Made by a program: the position numbers and the translations under genes
Shown: positions 1 through 11,249 of the stretch, piece by piece
Layout: the number at the start of each line of letters is the position of its first letter
Numbering within the stretch: the stretch's first letter is position 1
Source: a virus
Lineage: Duplodnaviria > Heunggongvirae > Uroviricota > Caudoviricetes
Direction: 5' to 3' (one strand)
DNA length: 11,249 nucleotides
IMG/VR virus record: IMGVR_UViG_2859793810_000003
The notes under the pieces: model-generated
Told to the model about the DNA's origin: nothing
The model's database searches: none
What the model saw: the letters and a program-made list of their open reading frames with translations, nothing else

Positions 1-819
1 ATGTGTCAGGTATTTGGTGTATCCAGGAGCGGTTATTACAACTGGGTACAGCATGAACCCTCAGACAGAAAACAAAGTGATGAGCGGCTAAAACCGGAGA
101 TTAAGGTGGCACATATCCGCACTCGCGAAACATATGGAACCCGGCGGCTCCAGACGGAGCTGGCAGAGAATGGCATCATCGTTGGTCGTGACCGACTGGC
201 ACGTCTTCGTAAGGAGCTGAGGCTACGCTGTAAGCAGAAACGCAAGTTCAGAGCGACTACGAACCCGAACCACAATCTGCCAGTTGCGCCAAATCTGCTG
301 AACCAGACGTTCGCTCCTACAGCACCAAATCAGGTCTGGGTGGCGGACCTGACGTATGTTGCCACACAGGAGGGATGGTTGTACCTCGCTGGCATCAAAG
401 ATGTTTATACGTGTGAAATTGTCGGCTACGCCATGGGAGAGCGCATGACAAAAGAGCTGACAGGTAAAGCCCTGTTTATGGCGCTCAGGAGCCAGCGCCC
501 ACCTGCCGGGCTAATCCACCACTCTGATCGAGGTTCACAGTACTGCGCATACGATTACCGGGTCATACAGGAGCAGTCTGGTCTGAAAACATCAATGTCG
601 CGTAAAGGTAACTGTTACGACAACGCTCCGATGGAAAGCTTCTGGGGAACGCTGAAAAATGAGAGCCTGAGCCACTATCGTTTTAATAACCGGGATGAAG
701 CCATCTCAGTAATACGGGAATACATTGAGATTTTCTACAATCGTCAGCGTCGTCACTCTCGTCTGGGGAATATCTCCCCGGCAGCCTTCAGGGAAAAATA
801 TCATCAGATGACTGCTTAA
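1..819 (+). CDS. IS3-family transposase OrfB (DDE integrase catalytic region), IS600-like; the OrfAB frame presumably continues upstream of the window
   Basis: 272-aa ORF with IS3-family OrfB character (HHSDRGSQY, CYDNAPMESFW motifs); one nucleotide different at the C-terminus from the copy at 8826-9644 (HQMTA vs HQMAA). Confidence 0.85.
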   Translation: MCQVFGVSRSGYYNWVQHEPSDRKQSDERLKPEIKVAHIRTRETYGTRRLQTELAENGIIVGRDRLARLRKELRLRCKQKRKFRATTNPNHNLPVAPNLLNQTFAPTAPNQVWVADLTYVATQEGWLYLAGIKDVYTCEIVGYAMGERMTKELTGKALFMALRSQRPPAGLIHHSDRGSQYCAYDYRVIQEQSGLKTSMSRKGNCYDNAPMESFWGTLKNESLSHYRFNNRDEAISVIREYIEIFYNRQRRHSRLGNISPAAFREKYHQMTA

Positions 820-862
820 AAAAAGAACAAATGGTAGTGTCCGCTATTGCCAGTACACCTCA
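1..862 (+). mobile_element. IS3-family insertion sequence (IS600-like), right-hand portion only; left end lies outside the window
   Basis: OrfB-type transposase ORF at 1-819; a near-identical inverted copy sits at 8783-9731; both copies share the same 43 bp after the orfB stop and diverge immediately after ...cagtacacctca (862 here), which defines the IS right end with the CA terminus typical of IS3-family elements. IS600 assignment is from memory of the OrfB sequence. Confidence 0.8.
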
Positions 863-1169
863 CTGACATGCTAAAGCAAAAAATAGATGAATAAGTTGAG
901 TTGTGCATATGTAGCCTGACCGTCACAAAGTATATGGTGTCTGTACCAGTAAGATGATGGCCGGACTCTTTAAAAAAGAGCTGACCTGCACAATACAGGA
1001 TGGACTTAGCAATGGCTGCTCCTGGCACAAAGCGGACAGTGATCACCGTTCTTACGACTACTTTCTGACTTCCTTCGTGACTTGCCCTAAGCATGTTTGA
1101 AGTGGCACACTGAATTTGGCCACCTGAACAGAGGTGATATGCTCACCTCAGAACAACACAGGTGCTCCA

Positions 1170-2338
<1,169 letters not shown>

Positions 2339-2346
2339 CCACTTCA

Positions 2347-2397
2347 GTTGTAGTGCGATACTTGTAATGACATTTGTAATTACAAGAGGTGTAAGAC
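2347..2397 (+). promoter_or_regulatory. relBE operator/promoter region (relO-like TTGTAAT / ATTACAA inverted hexads) with Shine-Dalgarno AGAGGTG
   Basis: Sequence cTTGTAATgacatTTGTAATTACAAgaggtgtaagacATG directly upstream of relB; palindromic hexads seen in sequence. Precise promoter elements not determinable here. Confidence 0.5.
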
Positions 2398-2637
2398 ATG
2401 GGTAGCATTAACCTGCGTATTGACGATGAACTTAAAGCGCGTTCTTACGCCGCGCTTGAAAAAATGGGTGTAACTCCTTCTGAAGCGCTTCGTCTCATGC
2501 TCGAGTATATCGCTGACAATGAACGCTTGCCGTTCAAACAGACACTCCTGAGTGATGAAGATGCTGAACTTGTGGAGATAGTGAAAGAACGGCTTCGTAA
2601 TCCTAAGCCAGTACGTGTGACGCTGGATGAACTCTGA
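2398..2637 (+). CDS. relB: RelB antitoxin (type II TA, RelB/DinJ family)
   Basis: 79-aa protein MGSINLRIDDELKARSYA...RNPKPVRVTLDEL, near-identical to E. coli K-12 RelB as I recall it; stop overlaps relE start (ATGA overlap). Confidence 0.93.
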   Translation: MGSINLRIDDELKARSYAALEKMGVTPSEALRLMLEYIADNERLPFKQTLLSDEDAELVEIVKERLRNPKPVRVTLDEL

Positions 2638-2924
2638 TGGCGTATTTTCTGGATTTTGACGAGCGGGCACTAAAGGAATGGCGAAAGCTGGGCTCGACGG
2701 TACGTGAACAGTTGAAAAAGAAGCTGGTTGAAGTACTTGAGTCACCCCGGATTGAAGCAAACAAGCTCCGTGGTATGCCTGATTGTTACAAGATTAAGCT
2801 CCGGTCTTCAGGCTATCGCCTTGTATACCAGGTTATAGACGAGAAAGTTGTCGTTTTCGTGATTTCTGTTGGGAAAAGAGAACGCTCGGAAGTATATAGC
2901 GAGGCGGTCAAACGCATTCTCTGA
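2637..2924 (+). CDS. relE: RelE toxin (ribosome-dependent mRNA endonuclease)
   Basis: 95-aa protein MAYFLDFDERALKEWRKL...SEVYSEAVKRIL, recognised as K-12 RelE; translationally coupled to relB. Confidence 0.93.
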   Translation: MAYFLDFDERALKEWRKLGSTVREQLKKKLVEVLESPRIEANKLRGMPDCYKIKLRSSGYRLVYQVIDEKVVVFVISVGKRERSEVYSEAVKRIL

Positions 2925-2995
2925 ACCAAAGCATGACATCTCTGTTTCGCACCGAAGGTGACACTTCTGCTTTGCGTTGACAGGAGAAGCAGGCT

Positions 2996-3151
2996 ATGAA
3001 GCAGCAAAAGGCGATGTTAATCGCCCTGATCGTCATCTGTTTAACCGTCATAGTGACGGCACTGGTAACGAGGAAAGACCTCTGCGAGGTACGAATCCGA
3101 ACCGGCCAGACGGAGGTCGCTGTCTTCACAGCTTACGAACCTGAGGAGTAA
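2996..3151 (+). CDS. hokD: Hok-family type I toxin HokD (RelF), 51 aa
   Basis: Not in the ORF track (below length cut-off). Own translation: MKQQKAMLIALIVICLTVIVTALVTRKDLCEVRIRTGQTEVAVFTAYEPEE, a Hok-family membrane peptide; position downstream of relBE matches the K-12 relBEF arrangement. Confidence 0.85.
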   Translation: MKQQKAMLIALIVICLTVIVTALVTRKDLCEVRIRTGQTEVAVFTAYEPEE

Positions 3152-3220
3152 GAGACCCGGCGAGTGAGAAATCCCTCGCCACCTCTGATGTGGCAGGCAT
3201 CCTCAACGCACCCGCACTTA

Positions 3221-3250
3221 ACCCGCTTCGGCGGGTTTTTGTTTTTATTT
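3221..3250 (+). terminator. Rho-independent terminator downstream of hokD
   Basis: Hairpin cccgc-ttcg-gcggg followed by TTTTTGTTTTTATTTT. Confidence 0.6.
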
Positions 3251-3368
3251 TCAACGCATTTGAAGTTCTGGATGGTGCCGGAATAGAATCAAAAATACTT
3301 AAGTAGCGCGCAGGGATAAAAGGGATGGACCCCGAACAGGGGAGTGCTACTTATCTGGAAGGATTCTG

Positions 3369-3620
3369 ATGATGAACATCGAAGAACTGCGTAAAATTTT
3401 TTGTGAAGATGGCCTCTATGCTGTGTGCGTTGAAAATGGAAATATTGTTAGTCATTACCGCATTGTGTGTTTGCAAAAAAATGGGGCTGCGTTAATTAAT
3501 TTTGTGGATGCCCGAGTGACGGACGGATTTATCTTGCGCGACGGTGAGTTTGTCACTTCATTACAGGCATTGAAAGAGATCGGAATAAAAGCTGGCTTTT
3601 CTGCTTTTTCAGAAGAATAA
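3369..3620 (+). CDS. rem: Small prophage protein, Rem-like (Qin prophage rem), function unknown
   Basis: 83-aa ORF with Shine-Dalgarno GGAAGGA upstream; sequence and position (between hokD and ydfU-like gene) match my recollection of K-12 rem; symbol from memory. Confidence 0.6.
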   Translation: MMNIEELRKIFCEDGLYAVCVENGNIVSHYRIVCLQKNGAALINFVDARVTDGFILRDGEFVTSLQALKEIGIKAGFSAFSEE

Positions 3621-3686
3621 ACTCATCTACAATCTTGCGCGGGGCTGAACTCCCGCTGAGTAACACCGTGCCACCGGAGAAAACCG

Positions 3687-3887
3687 ATGGCACGCAACGC
3701 AAAATATTACAATCATGATAATTCGACCGTTCTTGCCCACACGCACGAGCGGTATTCTCACGCATTTAAGTCAGACTGGTACCAGCATCCCTCATGCACT
3801 GAAGAACAGGCCGAATGGCTTATTCAGTGTTACCGCAGGCGCGGATGCGAGGTTAAAAAAGCCCTTAGCCTCGACTACCGTCACTAG
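3687..3887 (+). CDS. Hypothetical small phage protein (66 aa, Cys/His-containing)
   Basis: ORF with Shine-Dalgarno GGAGA 8 nt upstream of the ATG; not recognised. Confidence 0.4.
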   Translation: MARNAKYYNHDNSTVLAHTHERYSHAFKSDWYQHPSCTEEQAEWLIQCYRRRGCEVKKALSLDYRH

Positions 3888-3966
3888 ATAATCTCCGTCA
3901 GGCTCCCTTACTCCGAACAGCCACCGCGTCCGTCCCGCACATTCCAGCAACGGATCTGGAGGTAAC

Positions 3967-5016
3967 GTGCGGGTATTACTTCGACCTGTTCTGGTTCCGG
4001 AACTCGGGCTGGTGGTCCTTAAGCCCGGTCGTGAATCCATGCCGGTATTCCACAATACCCGGGTACTGGTGGAGCCGGAACCGAAAAGCATGCGTAATCT
4101 GCCGTCCGGGGTCGTTCCTGCCGTTCGCCAGCCGCTAGTGGAAGACAAAACATTGCTGCCGTTTTTCAGTAACGCACGGGTGATTCGTGCTGCTGGTGGT
4201 GCTGGCGCATTGTCTGACTGGCTGTTGCGCCATATTAAATCCTGCCAGTGGCCACACGGCGATTATCATCACAGCGAAACCGTCATTCACCGTTATGGTA
4301 CCGGCGCAATGGTATTGTGCTGGCACTGCGACAACCAGCTGCGTGACCAGACATCCGAATCACTCGAGCAACTTGCTCATCAAAACCTGTCAGCATGGAT
4401 GATTGACGTCATCGGTCACGCAATAAGCGGTACGCAGGAGCGTGAATTATCTCTGGCTGAATTATCCTGGTGGGCGGTCCGCAATCAGGTGGCGGACGCG
4501 CTACCGGAAGCGGTATTACGTCGTTCGCTGGGGTTGCGTGCGGAAAAAATCCGCTCAATGTACCGTGAAAGCGACATCGTGCCGGGAGAGCAGACCGCCA
4601 CCAGCATACTGAAGCAGCGCACAAAAAATCTTGCGCCGCTGCCTCACGCCCACCAGCAACAGAACCCACAACAGGAAAAGACGGTGGTCAGCATTGCCGT
4701 TGATCCTGAGTCTCCGGAATCTTTCATGAAACGACCTAAACGTCGCCGCTGGGTTAACGAGAAATACAAACGCTGGGTGAAGACACAGCCGTGTGCGTGT
4801 TGTGGTAAGCCAGCCGACGATCCCCATCACCTGATTGGTCATGGTCAGGGCGGAATGGGGACCAAATCTCACGATATTTTCACGCTACCGCTGTGTCGGG
4901 AGCATCACAACGAGCTTCATGCGGATCCTCTGGCGTTCGAAGAAAAGCATGGTTCTCAGGTTGATTTAATTTTTCGTTTTCTTGATCACGCCTTTGCAAC
5001 TGGCGTGCTTGGGTAA
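3967..5016 (+). CDS. ydfU: YdfU-like DUF968 prophage protein with C-terminal Cys/His (HNH-like) motif
   Basis: 349-aa ORF, GTG start preceded by GGAGG; N-terminus MRVLLRPVLVPELGLVVLKPG and overall sequence recalled as K-12 YdfU; C-terminus contains CACCGKPADDPHHLIGHG...CREHHNELH. Confidence 0.75.
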   Translation: MRVLLRPVLVPELGLVVLKPGRESMPVFHNTRVLVEPEPKSMRNLPSGVVPAVRQPLVEDKTLLPFFSNARVIRAAGGAGALSDWLLRHIKSCQWPHGDYHHSETVIHRYGTGAMVLCWHCDNQLRDQTSESLEQLAHQNLSAWMIDVIGHAISGTQERELSLAELSWWAVRNQVADALPEAVLRRSLGLRAEKIRSMYRESDIVPGEQTATSILKQRTKNLAPLPHAHQQQNPQQEKTVVSIAVDPESPESFMKRPKRRRWVNEKYKRWVKTQPCACCGKPADDPHHLIGHGQGGMGTKSHDIFTLPLCREHHNELHADPLAFEEKHGSQVDLIFRFLDHAFATGVLG

Positions 5017-5028
5017 AAGAGGTGACTG

Positions 5029-5385
5029 ATGCTCATAGATTTGGTTTTACCTTACCCGCCGACGGTGAACACTTACTGGCGACGCCGTGGCAGCACATAT
5101 TTTATCTCGGAGGAGGGAAAGCGTTATCGCCGGGCTGTGGCGCTTATTGTTCGCCAGCAGCGGCTGAAATTAAGCCTGTCCGGAAGGCTGGCGATAAAGG
5201 TGATTGCAGAGCCACCGGATAAGCGTCGTCGCGACCTGGACAATATCCTGAAAGCACCGCTGGATGCGCTGACGCATGCGGGAGTGTTAATGGACGATGA
5301 GCAGTTTGATGAAATCAATATCGTTCGTGGTCAGCCAGTATCTGGTGGACGTCTGGGGGTGAAGATTTACCCCATAATGCATTAA
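5029..5385 (+). CDS. rusA: RusA-family Holliday junction resolvase
   Basis: 118-aa ORF with Shine-Dalgarno AAGAGGTGA; motif PDKRRRDLDNILKAPLDALTHAGVLMDDEQ matches the RusA catalytic region (K-12 RusA has PDRRRRDLDN...DALT). Confidence 0.85.
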   Translation: MLIDLVLPYPPTVNTYWRRRGSTYFISEEGKRYRRAVALIVRQQRLKLSLSGRLAIKVIAEPPDKRRRDLDNILKAPLDALTHAGVLMDDEQFDEINIVRGQPVSGGRLGVKIYPIMH

Positions 5386-5399
5386 GAGCAGGTCAAAAA

Positions 5400-6221
5400 A
5401 TGAAACTGGAAGATTTACCGAAATACTACTCCCCAAAATCCCCTGGCCTGACCGATGCATCGGCCTCAACGTCAAAAGATGCGCTGAGTATCACTGATGT
5501 GATGGCCGCGCAGGGCATGACACAGAATCGGGCTGAGATGGGTTTTTCTGCGTTCCTGGGGAAAATGGGCATCAGTATGAATGACAGGGCGCGGGCAACA
5601 GAATTACTGGCAGATTATGCACTCAGTCGGTGCGATCGTGTGGCGGCGTTGAGAAAACTTCCGGCAGAAATAAAACCGGTAGTGATGCGCATTATGGCTT
5701 CGTACGCTTTTGAGGATTATGCCCGCAGCGCAGCGAGTAAAAAGCAGTGCCCTTGTTGCTATGGGGAAAAATTTATTGAAAGCATAGTTTTTACAAACAA
5801 GATCCAGTATCCGGATGGTAAGCCGCCGGTATGGGCAAAGTGTACGAAAGGTGTGTATCCGTTTTACTGGGAAGAATGGAAAAAAGTCAGGGAGGTGGTA
5901 AAAGTTGCCTGTCCGGAGTGTGGCGGAAAGGGTGAGGTTTCCACCGCCTGTAAGGATTGCCGTGGGCGTGGTGTCGCCATTCATCGTGAAGAGTCGGTAA
6001 AACGTGGTATGCCTGTTATCAGAGACTGCCAGCGTTGTGGTGGTCGTGGCTATGAAAGACTACCATCAACGGAGGCATTTAATGCTATATGCGAGGTGAC
6101 AAACCAGATAACACGCGCGTCATGGGAAAAAACAGTTAAGAAATTTTATGATGCGCTGGTGACCCGGTTTGATATTGAAGAAGCATGGGCTGAGCGGCAG
6201 TTAAAAAAGGTAACTAGGTAA
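5400..6221 (+). CDS. Late-gene antiterminator Q-like protein (QuuQ-like), carrying four CxxCxGxG zinc-finger repeats
   Basis: 273-aa ORF positioned between rusA and a PR'/tR'-like module, as for Q in lambdoid phages; N-terminus resembles my recollection of K-12 QuuQ; four CxxCxGxx motifs (CPCCYGEK, CPECGGKG, CKDCRGRG, CQRCGGRG) seen in the translation. Confidence 0.7.
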   Translation: MKLEDLPKYYSPKSPGLTDASASTSKDALSITDVMAAQGMTQNRAEMGFSAFLGKMGISMNDRARATELLADYALSRCDRVAALRKLPAEIKPVVMRIMASYAFEDYARSAASKKQCPCCYGEKFIESIVFTNKIQYPDGKPPVWAKCTKGVYPFYWEEWKKVREVVKVACPECGGKGEVSTACKDCRGRGVAIHREESVKRGMPVIRDCQRCGGRGYERLPSTEAFNAICEVTNQITRASWEKTVKKFYDALVTRFDIEEAWAERQLKKVTR

Positions 6222-6226
6222 CAAGG

Positions 6227-6254
6227 TTGATTTTTCCGGAATCTGTGGTAAATT
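6227..6254 (+). promoter_or_regulatory. PR'-like late promoter (-35 TTGATT, 16-bp spacer, -10 TAAATT) with a lambda-like initial transcribed region
   Basis: TTGATT...TAAATTcgtcataatgatgggcg resembles lambda PR' (TTGACT...TAAATTtgactcaacgatgggtt) as recalled; located immediately after the Q-like gene. Confidence 0.45.
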
Positions 6255-6303
6255 CGTCATAATGATGGGCGTTTTATGCCTGGCGTTAGAAGAGTTTCTA
6301 CAA

Positions 6304-6327
6304 CCCGCCGCTGAGCGGGTTTTTTTA
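6304..6327 (+). terminator. tR'-like rho-independent terminator
   Basis: Hairpin cccgc-cgctga-gcggg followed by seven T; lies about 50 bp downstream of the PR'-like promoter. Confidence 0.6.
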
Positions 6328-6365
6328 TTGCGAAATTAATTACGGACCGTTATTATTCTGCTCCC

Positions 6366-6441
6366 GGCCCTTTAGCTCAGTGGTGAGAGCGAGCGACTCA
6401 TAATCGCCAGGTCGCTGGTTCAAATCCAGCAAGGGCCACCA
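6366..6441 (+). tRNA. ileZ: tRNA-Ile2 (anticodon CAU, lysidine-type), phage-borne ileZ-like
   Basis: 76-nt cloverleaf folded by hand: acceptor GGCCCTT/AAGGGCC, D-stem GCTC/GAGC, anticodon loop CTCATAA (CAT at 6399-6401), T-loop TTCAAAT, 3' CCA encoded. Sequence much closer to E. coli ileX than to Met tRNAs as I recall them. Confidence 0.85.
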
Positions 6442-6542
6442 TCACAAACCGCCATTAGCTTATCAGGAAGAGCAGACGACACGATAACAGGGTTGTTGGT
6501 GCGGGGGGCGGGTCCCCGATGGCGGTCCATTATCGGTATTCA

Positions 6543-6619
6543 GCGTTGTTAGCTCAGCCGGACAGAGCAATTGCCTTCTAAGCAATCGGTCACTGGTTCG
6601 AATCCAGTACAGCGCGCCA
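6543..6619 (+). tRNA. tRNA-Arg (anticodon UCU, reads AGA)
   Basis: 77-nt cloverleaf folded by hand: acceptor GCGTTGT/ACAGCGC, anticodon stem ATTGC/GCAAT, loop CTTCTAA (TCT at 6577-6579), T-loop TTCGAAT, CCA encoded; similar to argU. Confidence 0.85.
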
Positions 6620-6729
6620 TATTCATTCTTCCAGATTCCTTCCGGCAGAGCCTTATACTGAAATATACCTGGCTCAGGATATTGTTGAAAATATTATATA
6701 TTTGTCAAAAATAAAAGTTCTGTTAAGTA

Positions 6730-7083
6730 TTGATTGAGTATTTGTTATACGGTCTAATGGTTTTTTCAGCATTAAGTATTTATCATTCATATGGTGTGGG
6801 TAGAGTGAATATTGATGAGGCGTCGGGGTGTTTCATCCTTAGGCAGCGTATTGATATAGTCAATGCAGCACGAGCAAAGGCCTTCAGCCGTTTGACAGTT
6901 TTGTTCTGTACTCCTGATCGTCTTTCGGGAAGAGACGTTATTATTCTGAATAGTGATGCTATACAGAGGGTTTGCGATGAGTTCATGGTTGCTAATTCAG
7001 AATTATTTGCTCTTGTTCAGGAGTACAACAGAATAGCCAGGACCTGTGGTATGGATGAACTTCGGATTACTCATCTGGGGTAG
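6730..7083 (+). CDS. Hypothetical protein in cargo region (117 aa from a TTG start; first in-frame ATG at 6757)
   Basis: Only the open frame supports this; no convincing Shine-Dalgarno; visibly AT-rich; contains several AGA/AGG/ATA codons. Not recognised. Confidence 0.3.
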   Translation: MIEYLLYGLMVFSALSIYHSYGVGRVNIDEASGCFILRQRIDIVNAARAKAFSRLTVLFCTPDRLSGRDVIILNSDAIQRVCDEFMVANSELFALVQEYNRIARTCGMDELRITHLG

Positions 7084-7475
7084 ATACATATCTGGATTAT
7101 CACCTGTTACGGTAAAAAGTGATTGCTTACTGTTTTTGTTAATGGCATTGCAGCAGCCGGATAATGTCAGTGCCGGCTGACGGTGTGCTGGTGGCGGGTG
7201 TGGTGGTTGTTGCTTTCCCGTTGCTGAAAAAGAAAACGCCAGACTGTTAGCCGGGTATCAGTTAGCGGGAGAAATTTTTAAATACTTCACAATTCAGGCG
7301 GTTGACTGTTGTCTGGTTTGCGGGGAGTTTGTTAAAAGAAACTGGCATGGTGAATCCCCCTGTGCGGAGGGGCAATCAGCGAGTAGGTATATGGGATAAT
7401 CGCGGATTCAGGTGCTGGTACTGAATTCACCGGGAGGCACCCGGCACCATGGAATGGCACATAGCGCCACTCTCC

Positions 7476-7510
7476 AGCCCCTCTCCGGAGGGGCTGTTTA
7501 TATTGATTTT
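7476..7510 (+). terminator. Rho-independent terminator (perfect 8-bp stem)
   Basis: agcccctc-tccg-gaggggct followed by GTTTATATTGATTTT. Confidence 0.55.
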
Positions 7511-7530
7511 GTCAGATGTGAGTAAACTCC

Positions 7531-7866
7531 TTATGGACTTTGTTGTTTTAGTCCATAAGGGCATATTTGCAGAGTGCAACGGTTATTAAAGCATTCATTC
7601 AATACGTTATCTGTATTTGTAGGGCATTCCTGGCTGTTTTTGATTAAATTCCAGAATGTTTTATTGAATGGTACTACGTTGTAAATGGTTACAGGTAGCA
7701 CTTTGTTATTGAGCATGATGCCTGTGTGAGTCAGTGTAAATATACTTTCAGGAGGTAAGAAAGCATCCGATTGATACCAGATTATTAATTTTATTTTACT
7801 CCATATGACTGAAAAAGATATTCCGCATGATGGCTGGATAACTGTATCAATCACAATCCACTTCAT
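7531..7866 (-). CDS. Hypothetical protein, opposite strand to the phage late operon (111 aa, Cys-containing C-terminus)
   Basis: ORF with good Shine-Dalgarno (AAGGAA, 5-nt spacer, ATG) on the minus strand; AT-rich; a perfect 11-bp inverted repeat (7529-7560) overlaps its stop codon. Not recognised. Confidence 0.45.
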
Positions 7867-8110
7867 TTAGTTTCCTTGTTTATGCCTTGCTGGTGATGTT
7901 CTGAAAAGTATAAATGATATTTTTGAATTAAACCATAGAACAGAATTATTTTTCTGATGTTGTTTATTGTTTATTTAAATGCAGGGTGGTTTATATCTCG
8001 TCTTGTAGTTTATCCATGCATATCTGCTTGATAATCAGGTTTTTATTTAAGGTATGGTTTTGTGTTTTTTCTGTATTACATGTCAGGTATTTTAAAGAAT
8101 TATTTTTCAG

Positions 8111-8314
8111 ATGTTGGAAAGAACCATGGCATTTAAACACTATGATGTTGTCAGGGCGGCGCCGCCGTCAGATCTTGCGGAAAAGCTGACACATAAACTG
8201 AAAGAGGGCTGGCAGCCGTTTGGTAGTCCGGTGGCCATAACCCCTTATACCCTGATGCAGGCGATTGCAGCAGAAGGTGATGTGGTGGTCAGTGGTGCAA
8301 CTGAGCCGGAGTGA
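8111..8314 (+). CDS. Small conserved lambdoid late-region protein (family uncertain); likely start at ATG 8126
   Basis: ORF MAFKHYDVVRAAPPSDLAEKLTHKLKEGWQPFGSPVAITPYTLMQAIAAEGDVVVSGATEPE with GGAAAG 4 nt before the 8126 ATG; sequence feels familiar from E. coli prophages but I cannot name the family reliably. Confidence 0.5.
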   Translation: MLERTMAFKHYDVVRAAPPSDLAEKLTHKLKEGWQPFGSPVAITPYTLMQAIAAEGDVVVSGATEPE

Positions 8315-8556
8315 TACTACGTCATCGTACTGGCCCGGCATTCCAGGCCATAAAAGACAGTCTGGCAGTGGGACTAAATGCACTGACGCTGACGGATATT
8401 ACCAAAAATGCAACGTATGGCGTTGAGATAGAAAGTCTGGTGCTGGAGATAAATGCACCGGCATCATCATAAAAAGTGAGCCAGTCAAATGGAAGGTATC
8501 GTTAAACTCACCGGTAGTGTCAGTGGGTCGTCTGAGACGCTTGCATGAGTTATCAG

Positions 8557-8588
8557 AGCCATCAGTAGTTAACTGGTGGCTTTTTTAT
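8557..8588 (+). terminator. Putative rho-independent terminator upstream of the holin gene
   Basis: agccatcag-tagttaa-ctggtggct (one mismatch) followed by TTTTTTATTG. Confidence 0.45.
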
Positions 8589-8621
8589 TGTTGTCAGCTT
8601 CCGGATAACGGGAGACGGGGT

Positions 8622-8782
8622 ATGGACCAGATGGAAAAAATCACAACAGGTGTGTCATACACCACGTCAGCGGTGGGAACGGGCTACTGGTTCCTGCAGT
8701 TGCTGGACAGGGTTTCCCCGTCTCAGTGGGCGGCAATAGGCGTGCTGGGGAGTCTGCTGTTTGGGCTGCTGACATATCTGAC
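8622..8782 (+). pseudogene. Phage-21-type pinholin (S21 family) gene, 3'-truncated by IS insertion; dual-start motif M-D-Q-M
   Basis: [54 protein letters not shown] resembles S21 pinholin ([45 protein letters not shown]... as recalled); Shine-Dalgarno GGAGA upstream; the reading frame runs into the IS600-like right end at 8783 and terminates after 6 IS-derived codons. Confidence 0.8.
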
Positions 8783-9731
8783 TGAGGTGTACTGGCAATA
8801 GCGGACACTACCATTTGTTCTTTTTTTAAGCAGCCATCTGATGATATTTTTCCCTGAAGGCTGCCGGGGAGATATTCCCCAGACGAGAGTGACGACGCTG
8901 ACGATTGTAGAAAATCTCAATGTATTCCCGTATTACTGAGATGGCTTCATCCCGGTTATTAAAACGATAGTGGCTCAGGCTCTCATTTTTCAGCGTTCCC
9001 CAGAAGCTTTCCATCGGAGCGTTGTCGTAACAGTTACCTTTACGCGACATTGATGTTTTCAGACCAGACTGCTCCTGTATGACCCGGTAATCGTATGCGC
9101 AGTACTGTGAACCTCGATCAGAGTGGTGGATTAGCCCGGCAGGTGGGCGCTGGCTCCTGAGCGCCATAAACAGGGCTTTACCTGTCAGCTCTTTTGTCAT
9201 GCGCTCTCCCATGGCGTAGCCGACAATTTCACACGTATAAACATCTTTGATGCCAGCGAGGTACAACCATCCCTCCTGTGTGGCAACATACGTCAGGTCC
9301 GCCACCCAGACCTGATTTGGTGCTGTAGGAGCGAACGTCTGGTTCAGCAGATTTGGCGCAACTGGCAGATTGTGGTTCGGGTTCGTAGTCGCTCTGAACT
9401 TGCGTTTCTGCTTACAGCGTAGCCTCAGCTCCTTACGAAGACGTGCCAGTCGGTCACGACCAACGATGATGCCATTCTCTGCCAGCTCCGTCTGGAGCCG
9501 CCGGGTTCCATATGTTTCGCGAGTGCGGATATGTGCCACCTTAATCTCCGGTTTTAGCCGCTCATCACTTTGTTTTCTGTCTGAGGGTTCATGCTGTACC
9601 CAGTTGTAATAACCGCTCCTGGATACACCAAATACCTGACACATCGCTTCAATGGGAAATTGTTGTCGCCATTGTTCGATTAACGCGTATTTTTCAGCGA
9701 CTCCTGTGCAAAATACGCTGTTGCTTTTTTT
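8783..9731 (-). mobile_element. IS3-family insertion sequence (IS600-like), second copy, inverted relative to the first; left portion (IRL and most of orfA) missing, truncated by IS1
   Basis: Right end identical to the copy at 1-862 up to the CA terminus (reverse complement at 8783); the OrfAB reading frame continues upstream of the orfB ATG (…KYALIEQWRQQFPIEAMCQVF) and is cut at 9731 directly at an A-rich slippery-like heptamer. Confidence 0.85.
8826..9644 (-). CDS. IS3-family transposase OrfB (IS600-like), copy 2
   Basis: 272-aa ORF, one amino-acid different from the ORF at 1-819. Confidence 0.85.
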   Translation of the reverse strand: MCQVFGVSRSGYYNWVQHEPSDRKQSDERLKPEIKVAHIRTRETYGTRRLQTELAENGIIVGRDRLARLRKELRLRCKQKRKFRATTNPNHNLPVAPNLLNQTFAPTAPNQVWVADLTYVATQEGWLYLAGIKDVYTCEIVGYAMGERMTKELTGKALFMALRSQRPPAGLIHHSDRGSQYCAYDYRVIQEQSGLKTSMSRKGNCYDNAPMESFWGTLKNESLSHYRFNNRDEAISVIREYIEIFYNRQRRHSRLGNISPAAFREKYHQMAA

Positions 9732-9746
9732 GGTAATGACTCCAAC

Positions 9747-10250
9747 TTACTGATAGTGTTTTATGTTCAGATAATGCCCGATGACCTTGTCATGCAGCTC
9801 CACCGATTTTGAGAACGACAGTGACTTCCGTACCAGCCTTGCCAGATGTTGTCTCAGATTCAGATTATGTCGCTCAATGCGCTGAGTGTAACGCTTGCTG
9901 ATAACGTGCAGCTTTCCCTTCAGGCGTGATTCATACAGCGGACAGCCATCCGTCATCCATACCACGACCTCAAAGGCCGACAGCAGGCTCAGAAGACGCT
10001 CCAGTGTGGCCAGAGTGCGTTCACCGAAGACGTGCGCCACAACCGTCCTCCGTATCCTGTCATACGCGTAAAACAGCCAGCGCTGACGTGATTTAGCACC
10101 GACGTAGCCCCAATGTTCGTCCATTTCAGCGCAGACAATCACATCACTGCCCGGTTGTATGCGCGAGGTTACCGACTGCGGCCTGAGTTTTTTAAGTGAC
10201 GTAAAACCGTGTTGAGGCCAACGCCCATAATGCGTGCACTGGCGCGACAT
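9747..10250 (-). CDS. insB: IS1 InsB (catalytic part of the InsAB' transposase, made by -1 frameshift)
   Basis: 167-aa protein ...[38 protein letters not shown]... recognised as IS1 InsB; overlaps insA in the -1 frame. Confidence 0.95.
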
Positions 10251-10444
10251 CCGACGCCATTCATGGCCATATCAATGATTTTCTGGTGCGTACCGGGCTG
10301 AGAGGCGGTGTAAGTGAACTGTAGTTGCCATGTTTTACGGCAATGAGAGCAGAGATAGCGCTGATGTCCGGCAGTGCTTTTGCCGTTACGCACCACGCCT
10401 TCAGTAGCGGAGCAGGAAGGACATCTGATGGAAATGGAAGCCAC
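10169..10444 (-). CDS. insA: IS1 InsA (transposition repressor, N-terminal part of InsAB')
   Basis: 91-aa protein [43 protein letters not shown]... recognised as IS1 InsA. Confidence 0.95.
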
Positions 10445-10499: not shown

Positions 10500-11249
10500 C
10501 TGGTTGTAGACTTGTCTCAGCATATAAGTTGCTGGAATGATTACGGCGGCTGGTACGACACTGATCATATAAACCTGGTACAAGGCTCAGCTTTCGCAGG
10601 CTCCCTACAGTCATATAAAGGATCGCTGTACTGGAATAATGTGACCTACCCCTTCCCGTTGACGACAAATACCAACGTATTGGATATTGGTGATAAGACA
10701 CCGATGCCATTACCGTTAAAACTCTATATTACCCCAGTTGGGGCGGCCGGTGGAGTTGTCATAAAAGCGGGGGAAGTCATTGCCCGTATTCATATGTATA
10801 AAATTGCAACATTAGGAAGCGGAAATCCGCGTAATTTTACGTGGAATATTATTTCAAATAACAGTGTTGTTATGCCAACAGGCGGCTGCACCGTTGATAG
10901 TCGTAATGTCACCGTGGATCTCCCGGACTTTCCTGGAAGCGCAGAAATACCCCTTGGCGTATATTGCTCAAGCGAACAAAAGCTCTCATTTTATCTTTCG
11001 GGTGCCACCACTGACAGTAGCCGACAAGTGTTTGCTAACACAGCACCTGATGCAACAAAAGCATCGGGAGTGGGTGTCACTCTAATGCGTAATGGAAAAA
11101 TACTGGCTACGGGAGAAAATGTCTCCCTGGGGACAGTAAATAAAAGCAAAGTACCTCTGGGTTTAAGCGCAACCTATGGACAAACAGGAAACAAGGTTTC
11201 AGCCGGAACCGTCCAGTCAGTCATTGGTGTCACTTTTATCTATGAATAA
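10500..11249 (+). pseudogene. FimH-like fimbrial tip adhesin gene (chaperone-usher family), 5'-truncated by IS1; 3' end and stop codon intact at window end
   Basis: The frame is open from the IS1 junction; [17 protein letters not shown]...[24 protein letters not shown]...[12 protein letters not shown] aligns by eye with E. coli FimH (LVVDLSTQIFCHNDYPE...VVPTGGCDVSARDVTVTLPDYPGS...VQSIIGVTFVYQ); the signal peptide and start of the lectin domain are missing. Confidence 0.8.

Follow-up and report, generated by a model that had tools for sequence, protein, structure and literature searches.

Mostly described cargo at and beside the stx-equivalent position of a defective Shigella flexneri-type prophage: iraL, an STnc100-family sRNA and a conserved small gene passed over by annotation

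Introduction

Stx2-converting phages carry stx2AB immediately upstream of STnc100 and the esterase gene nanS-p, with STnc100 lying 75 nt downstream of stx2B (PMC12370729). The STnc100 element overlaps the Hfq-bound sRNA EcOnc27/sRNA103, which has been confirmed by northern blot (PMC12711010, PMC7873438, PMC4104026), and a 2026 preprint relates the element to PasD of EPEC (10.64898/2026.05.13.724894). In EHEC prophages, a short anti-sRNA, either AsxR or AgvB, faces the STnc100 sRNA in convergent orientation (PMC4104026, PMC7873438). The second described system of relevance here acts on sigma-S. Hryckowian et al. [quoted passage not shown] IraL of CFT073 and S. sonnei binds the N-terminal receiver domain of RssB; this is the only RssB domain that IraL contacts, whereas IraM touches both, and IraL works in unstressed log phase (PMC4045071). 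K-12 IraM, which is e14-adjacent and induced by Mg2+ starvation, is a homologous anti-adaptor of the same NCBIfam subfamily as IraL, but its genomic context differs and IraL carries a 4-aa C-terminal extension. Published work already treats both iraL and STnc100 as prophage elements through which host stress and virulence regulation is rewired.

Here we analyzed an 11,249-nt stretch of DNA, referred to in its entirety as the window, with a focus on positions 6620-8110, referred to as the segment. An earlier sequence-only reading had described the segment as unrecognized, AT-rich cargo at the position where Stx phages carry stx, and as a candidate for an undescribed accessory function of a toxin, defense or regulatory kind. 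We found that the segment is mostly described cargo, with iraL and STnc100/EcOnc27 already known, and that what remains is orf92, a conserved gene skipped by annotation, together with a variant of the iraL promoter. In our assessment, the segment is very probably the mosaic cargo ('moron') region, composed of four modules, of a defective Qin/potB-type lambdoid prophage, occupying the same locus as in CFT073.

Organization of the prophage and its cargo segment

From its ORFs, tRNAs and family matches, the window was identified as a Shigella flexneri-type, IS-riddled defective lambdoid prophage (Table 1). The gene order proposed from the sequence alone, consisting of Q, PR'/tR', tRNAs, cargo and lysis genes, was confirmed by the PF03589 match, the promoter, the hairpin, the tRNA calls and the holin. 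The −10 hexamer of the PR'-like promoter, TAAATT, is the one found in lambda PR'. E. coli 042 and CFT073 have the tRNA with anticodon CAU at this position too, under the label tRNA-Ile. The middle tRNA-Arg, which is intact in CFT073 and Nil3, has its anticodon-arm region replaced here, and this stretch of the window received neither an ARAGORN nor an Rfam call.

Table 1 Positions of features in the 11,249-nt window, counted from its first nucleotide.
Feature	Position	Strand	Basis or remark
IS600 orfB	1-819		ORF list
IS911-like element	1134-2338		ORF list
relB/relE/hokD-like genes	2398-3151		ORF list
DUF968	3967-5016		
RusA	5029-5385		
Q antiterminator	5400-6221		PF03589
PR'-like late promoter	6227-6254	+	TTGATT, 16-nt spacer, TAAATT; directly after Q
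tR'-type intrinsic terminator, short PR' transcript	6302-6321	+	Hairpin AACCCGCCGCTGAGCGGGTT, then T-run TTTTTATT
Phage tRNA, anticodon CAU (tRNA-Ile2 type)	6366-6441	+	ARAGORN; Rfam tRNA, 72.5 bits
Degenerate middle tRNA-Arg of the Ile-Arg-Arg cluster	6449-6530	+	Alignment with CFT073 and Nil3
Phage tRNA-Arg, anticodon UCU	6543-6619	+	ARAGORN; Rfam, 68 bits
orf92, conserved small protein	6730-7083	+	Longest ORF 117 aa; 92-aa core 6805-7083
DUF3927 mini-gene (PF13064), 43 aa when intact	7119-7250	+	Pseudogene here
STnc100-family sRNA	7316-7505	+	Rfam RF02076; terminator included
iraL, RssB anti-adaptor of the IraM family, 111 aa	7531-7866	-	Identity to CFT073 IraL
iraL 5' UTR and promoter region	7867-7999	-	−100 to +33 of the published complementing fragment
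Deleted nanS-p-type esterase gene	8126-8472	+	N-terminal DUF1737 to 8314; C-terminal 53-aa piece 8311-8472
Class II holin, 59 aa left	8622-8801	+	PF04971; cut by IS600 insertion
Inverted IS600 orfB	8826-9644	-	Truncates holin
IS1 and fimbrial adhesin gene	After inverted IS600		

Downstream of the segment, the DUF1737 remnant of the nanS-p-type gene matched PF08410 (E = 4 × 10−17), and the two remnants of the gene matched the two ends of the 634-aa phrog_143, indicating an internal deletion. The gene is labeled incomplete in 042 and CFT073 as well, and an intact SASA esterase occupies its position at locus L009. The remaining 59 aa of the holin are an exact match to 'Lysis protein S [Shigella flexneri]', which falls in a cluster of 71-aa holins, and the adhesin fragment is likewise an exact match to a protein named from Shigella flexneri; by these matches, the DNA derives from S. 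flexneri or a very close relative. IS600 has truncated the holin and nothing else of the lysis cassette survives, which leaves the prophage without working phage functions and makes the host-directed cargo the only part that can still matter.

The closest described relative of the locus was the potB-island prophage of CFT073, to which positions 6324-8783 of the window are 98.1% identical at the DNA level. The two loci share DUF968, RusA, Q, the tRNAs, DUF3927, STnc100, iraL, the deleted nanS-p and the holin, and within iraL they share an identical 111-aa protein, the transcription start site (TSS) sequence and the −10 element. The window differs from CFT073 in a deletion in the iraL −35 region accompanied by two nearby substitutions, in the degenerate middle tRNA-Arg, in a nonsense codon in DUF3927, in the interruption of the lysis cassette by IS600, and in lacking the IS200C insertion that follows Q in CFT073.

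Sequence composition agreed with the description of the segment as AT-rich on average (GC content 0.39 vs. 0.49 for the window) but not throughout, as GC content was patchy and rose from 0.28 in the spacer upstream of iraL to 0.31 in the spacer between the tRNA and the plus-strand ORF, 0.35 in iraL, 0.44 in the plus-strand ORF and 0.55 in the sRNA block. The segment was matched at least in part by 2720 of the 5426 complete E. coli genomes, with matches over at least 80% in 863, and hundreds of complete E. coli genomes contain the whole segment at 95-99% identity, under the labels 'anti-adapter protein IraM' and 'DUF3927 family protein'. Partial matches in phage records broke at module borders, which is consistent with mosaic assembly.

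Content of the stx-equivalent slot

The surroundings of the slot are of the Stx-phage type, with Q, PR', tR' and tRNA-Ile/Arg upstream and STnc100, nanS-p and the holin downstream all present. The proposal that the segment sits at an accessory-cargo site equivalent to the stx position was supported by comparison with phages that differ in what they carry there, namely stx2AB in the Stx2 phages and nothing in the Nil3 record (AM051322), in which the STnc100 region starts about 35 nt after the last tRNA-Arg. In the window, as in CFT073, 042 and mEp460, orf92 and DUF3927 lie between tRNA-Arg and STnc100 instead of toxin genes, and a search of positions 6620-8110 returned no stx-like ORF or stx-like Pfam match. 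Because this interval is empty in Nil3, holds stx2AB in the Stx2 phages and holds orf92 and DUF3927 in the window, the strict stx-equivalent interval spans about 6620-7270. A second insertion, iraL, is separate from this interval and lies between STnc100 and the gene of the nanS-p esterase.

The smaller of the two genes in the strict interval, the DUF3927 mini-gene, is inactivated by a nonsense codon: alignment and translation showed TAA at codon 8 (7140-7142) of the window copy, where 042 and mEp460 have GAA. The intact copy in 042 and CFT073 is labeled 'DUF3927 family protein' (WP_000562553.1). Fragments of the window copy had no Pfam match, and a literature search for DUF3927 returned nothing informative.

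An intact iraL with a variant promoter

Both ORFs of the sequence-only reading, of 117 aa on the plus strand and 111 aa on the minus strand, were found where it had placed them, and the minus-strand ORF is iraL. Its product is identical to CFT073 IraL (WP_000871291.1) at 111/111 residues (100%), scored 162 bits over residues 1-110 against NCBIfam NF007393 (anti-adapter protein IraM, cutoff 121), and matched the solved IraM structure PDB 8twd (E = 9 × 10−32), while identity to K-12 IraM was 62% over 107 aa. Under the published definition, which asks for at least 95% to CFT073 iraL and separates the gene from iraM (PMC4045071), the window copy is an iraL. [quoted passage not shown]

Transcription of iraL would start from its own sigma-70 promoter and run against the phage late operon. 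The minus strand has the published TSS sequence ACATCACCAGCAAGGCATAAACAAGGAAAC (PMC4045071) at 7899 and the −10 element TATACT at 7907-7912. Alignment with CFT073 revealed a 1-nt deletion in the −35 region that removes the C from TTTACA, the CFT073 hexamer most like a −35 element, as well as a G>A substitution at −1 and a C>T substitution five bases before the ATG. Judged by these differences, this iraL copy may be weakly expressed or silent. A stronger form of this reading is that the protein is intact but the allele is transcriptionally crippled, leaving iraL as a silent remnant and the sRNA as the only element still active. The loss of the C and the two further base changes, one at −1 and one in the 5' UTR, point in this direction, as does a published precedent, since the −35 mutant allele JJ1886 iraL2 was flagged as being of unknown expression (PMC4045071). 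We nevertheless regard a crippled allele as the less probable state, given that the −10 and TSS sequences are intact and that at least 11 complete E. coli genomes contain a match to the entire segment with a length of 1491 nt, one base fewer than 042, which in terms of length only is consistent with the same allele. The deletion may bear on sigma-S control in Shigella.

The structured stretch is an STnc100-family sRNA

The ORF-free structured stretch with its own terminator, also noticed from the sequence alone, exists and corresponds to STnc100. It matched RF02076 across the full model (positions 1-206 of 206) with 124.2 bits compared to a gathering score of 47 (E = 1.6 × 10−27), and its 3' end is an intrinsic terminator at 7475-7496 with a 9-bp GC-rich stem followed by TTTATATT. 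Both published STnc_100 qPCR primers have exact sites here and delimit a 93-bp amplicon at 7346-7438, as reported (PMC12370729), and the window copy is 97% identical to that of Nil3. The stretch was no more stably folded than shuffled sequence (z = −1.2), such that the evidence for STnc100 comes from homology, not thermodynamics. STnc100 lies between PR'/tRNAs and nanS-p/lysis genes in the window, and the same arrangement was found at loci L001, L002, L007, L009 and L020.

The product would be a terminator-ended sRNA of roughly 190 nt, convergent with iraL, for which Hfq binding has been shown in EHEC. An anti-sRNA of the AgvB/AsxR type opposite STnc100 was rejected, as neither RF02702 nor RF02703 had a match, whether positions 7200-7700 were searched at E values up to 10 or the entire window at E values up to 1. 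The partner of STnc100 in the EHEC copies is AsxR or AgvB, whereas iraL fills the convergent position here.

Most of the segment therefore gave full-length matches to characterized prophage genes (IraL, RF02076), an outcome that the sequence-only reading had itself named as counting against it. Database and profile searches recovered iraL, STnc100, DUF3927 and phrog_2873, with 0 families from PADLOC. Database identities thus removed the label 'unrecognized' from the minus-strand ORF, from the small DUF3927 ORF located between the two larger ones and from the structured stretch, and left it standing for the function of the 117-aa ORF. In the same way, the segment is accessory, regulatory cargo as suggested, but it is not undescribed with respect to iraL and STnc100, and orf92 alone remains.

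orf92 is conserved and under purifying selection

Three possible starts were found for orf92, namely TTG at 6730, ATG at 6757, which gives the 108-aa PHROG form, and GTG at 6805, which gives the 92-aa core. Cross-genus alignments identified (M/V)NIDE, at GTG 6805, as the conserved start. A signal peptide or transmembrane segment was considered for the hydrophobic stretch of 25 residues at the N terminus of the 117-aa ORF and rejected, as these residues are conserved in close relatives only and were modeled with low pLDDT. orf92 matched phrog_2873 end to end (residues 10-117 vs. 1-108 of 108, E = 2.2 × 10−69) and phrog_4827 weakly (E = 4 × 10−5). Neither family has a functional annotation, and membership in them names orf92 without explaining it. 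Profile searches of Pfam, NCBIfam, PADLOC and PDB yielded no match for orf92, with GapR/UPF0335 as the best PDB profile (E = 0.12, not significant), and none of the PADLOC defense models was matched by orf92, IraL or intact DUF3927, nor by two distant homologues of orf92.

Compared to a 67%-identical copy in another prophage, orf92 had a dN/dS of 0.27, and changes were distributed over the three codon positions as 25, 23 and 44, i.e. with a third-position excess, while the other reading frames were full of stops. By this substitution pattern, orf92 is a real gene. Decay is apparent elsewhere in the locus, including the DUF3927 nonsense codon, the internal deletion of nanS-p, the holin cut by IS600 and the degenerate middle tRNA, and RefSeq leaves orf92 unannotated, as would be the case if the ORFs were non-coding decay products of a dead prophage. 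This explanation, which the sequence-only reading had raised against itself, was largely refuted and is very improbable, since IraL agrees with the functional CFT073 protein at every residue and orf92 is intact, with its low dN/dS and third-position excess, cross-genus homologues and a confident fold. An AF2 model built with the cross-genus alignment was an antiparallel helical hairpin (pLDDT 88, pTM 0.75), and the proteins of the family were predicted to be soluble and near neutral. Fold searches with the model retrieved only generic hairpins and no specific structural neighbor.

Distribution and genomic context of orf92

The orf92 family is small: an exhaustive search with a profile against 1.84 billion representatives returned 20 proteins, and a second profile search returned 40. 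Its hosts were Escherichia/Shigella, Citrobacter, Salmonella, Morganella, Serratia and Xenorhabdus, and the homologues, all of them 'hypothetical', were 91-110 aa long and 20-63% identical. Within E. coli, orf92 was present in about a quarter of complete genomes (1314/5426), and about 1,185 complete genomes had near-identical copies of this conserved small gene, with RefSeq annotation in 0 of the 36 sampled. The viable phage mEp460 carries orf92 as well.

Genomic context is the most informative feature of orf92. It is co-oriented with the late operon in prophages of E. coli, Citrobacter, Morganella and Serratia, placed after Q, which may be accompanied by a methylase and tRNAs, and before the holin. 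Of the protein-coding genes in the window, orf92 is the first to follow the late promoter and tRNAs, exactly where the Stx2 phages have stx2AB. It would be co-transcribed with the late operon or reached by read-through from the tRNA genes, and its product would act through protein-protein contacts. In a Citrobacter prophage, the orf92 homologue (42% identity) is followed one gene further on by a DUF3927 gene, located just before the holin.

With most of the segment accounted for by iraL and STnc100, orf92, alone or together with DUF3927, is the only candidate left for the idea that the slot holds an undescribed toxin, defense or regulatory function. The absence of Pfam, NCBIfam, PADLOC and PDB sequence matches next to a match to phrog_2873 ('unknown function'), purifying selection at the stx-equivalent position and the recurrence near DUF3927 in Citrobacter favor such a function. 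It nonetheless appears doubtful to us, as the predicted fold is a generic helical hairpin, no toxin-, enzyme- or defense-like signature was found in orf92, and DUF3927 is a pseudogene here, such that any function requiring both genes is broken in the window. A further reading, which we hold to be less likely than not, is that orf92 represents an unnamed, Enterobacterales-wide helical-hairpin family of roughly 92-110 aa, placed as the first protein gene of the late operon, with a specific and undescribed role. Such a role could be modulation of lysis or late genes, or a host-directed function together with the DUF3927 membrane peptide and STnc100.

Two narrower associations of orf92 were considered and rejected. 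Linkage to STnc100 was found within Escherichia only, not across genera, and orf92 was not tied to one tRNA, as the upstream tRNAs varied among Arg, Thr, Asn, Gly and Met/Ile2. In one E. coli lineage, orf92 and an upstream tRNA-Thr were located on a plasmid-like contig with a Rep3 replication gene, beside a fimbrial operon.

Sequence changes at the iraL promoter

Aligned with the copy of the locus in CFT073, the window version of iraL, the RssB anti-adaptor gene, has lost one nucleotide from its −35 region (7925-7935, minus strand), namely the C of GGTTTACATTC, and also shows G>A at position −1 (7900) and C>T five bases ahead of the ATG (7869). Among complete E. coli genomes, the whole segment (window 6620-8110) was matched in at least 11 at 1491 nt, its length in the window; in E. 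coli 042 it is one base longer. Judged by length, these matches are consistent with the −35-region deletion being present in those genomes as well.

Gene decay and insertion sequences around the segment

Compared with its counterparts in 042, CFT073 and phage mEp460, the DUF3927 mini-gene, which lies between orf92 (a conserved small protein gene) and the sRNA STnc100, is cut short by a nonsense codon (GAA>TAA, 7140-7142). The nanS-p-type sialate esterase gene has been cut down to a DUF1737 N-terminus and a 53-aa C-terminal piece, which match the ends of phrog_143 (634 aa), and the same deletion is found in CFT073 and 042. Within the phage Ile-Arg-Arg tRNA cluster, the middle tRNA-Arg is whole in CFT073 and phage Nil3, and its anticodon-arm region has been replaced in the window and in 042; neither ARAGORN nor Rfam called this tRNA in the window.

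Insertion of IS600 truncates the holin to 59 aa, and the remainder of the lysis cassette is missing in the window. Because a second IS600 copy lies inverted at the left end, the prophage fragment (820-8825) is flanked by inverted copies of this element. Beyond it, IS1 adjoins the frame of a FimH-like fimbrial adhesin, whose 245-aa fragment exactly matches a protein named adhesin in Shigella flexneri.

Coordinates of features in the window and in comparison loci
Feature	Sequence	Coordinates	Remark
IS600, second copy	window	1-819	left end, inverted orientation
Middle tRNA-Arg	window	6449-6530	
DUF3927 mini-gene	window	7119-7250	
nanS-p-type gene	window	8126-8472	
Holin	window	8622-8801	
IS600 insertion	window	8826-9644	
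IS1 (insA/insB)	window	9747-10444	
Fimbrial adhesin frame	window	10512-11249	continues past window end
Antisense pseudogene	L001	6716-6841 (minus)	= window 7335-7460
STnc100 copies	L009	4639-4835, 4899-5088	tandem, ~60 nt between
STnc100 copies	L002	3344-3556, 6650-6839	between: AraC-type regulator gene, IS, orf92 homologue
DUF968 homologue	L007	2350-3399	
orf92 family member	L013-L015	6001-6276	91 aa

Annotation and relatives at comparison loci

At comparison locus L001, RefSeq records a partial 'hypothetical protein' pseudogene antisense across the STnc100 sRNA and leaves orf92 without annotation. Together, the antisense call and the missed gene appear to be a systematic artefact of annotation here. 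Some E. coli prophages (L002, L009) hold two STnc100 copies in one late region.

In phage mEp460_ev081 (L007), the phage record labels a DUF968 homologue 'Phage antitermination protein Q'; the genuine Q (PF03589) lies two genes further on, and the label is probably a mis-annotation.

One relative of orf92 lies outside any phage late region, on plasmid-like contigs with a Rep3 replication gene (L013-L015), where it has a tRNA-Thr upstream and adjoins a PapB-regulated chaperone-usher fimbrial operon.
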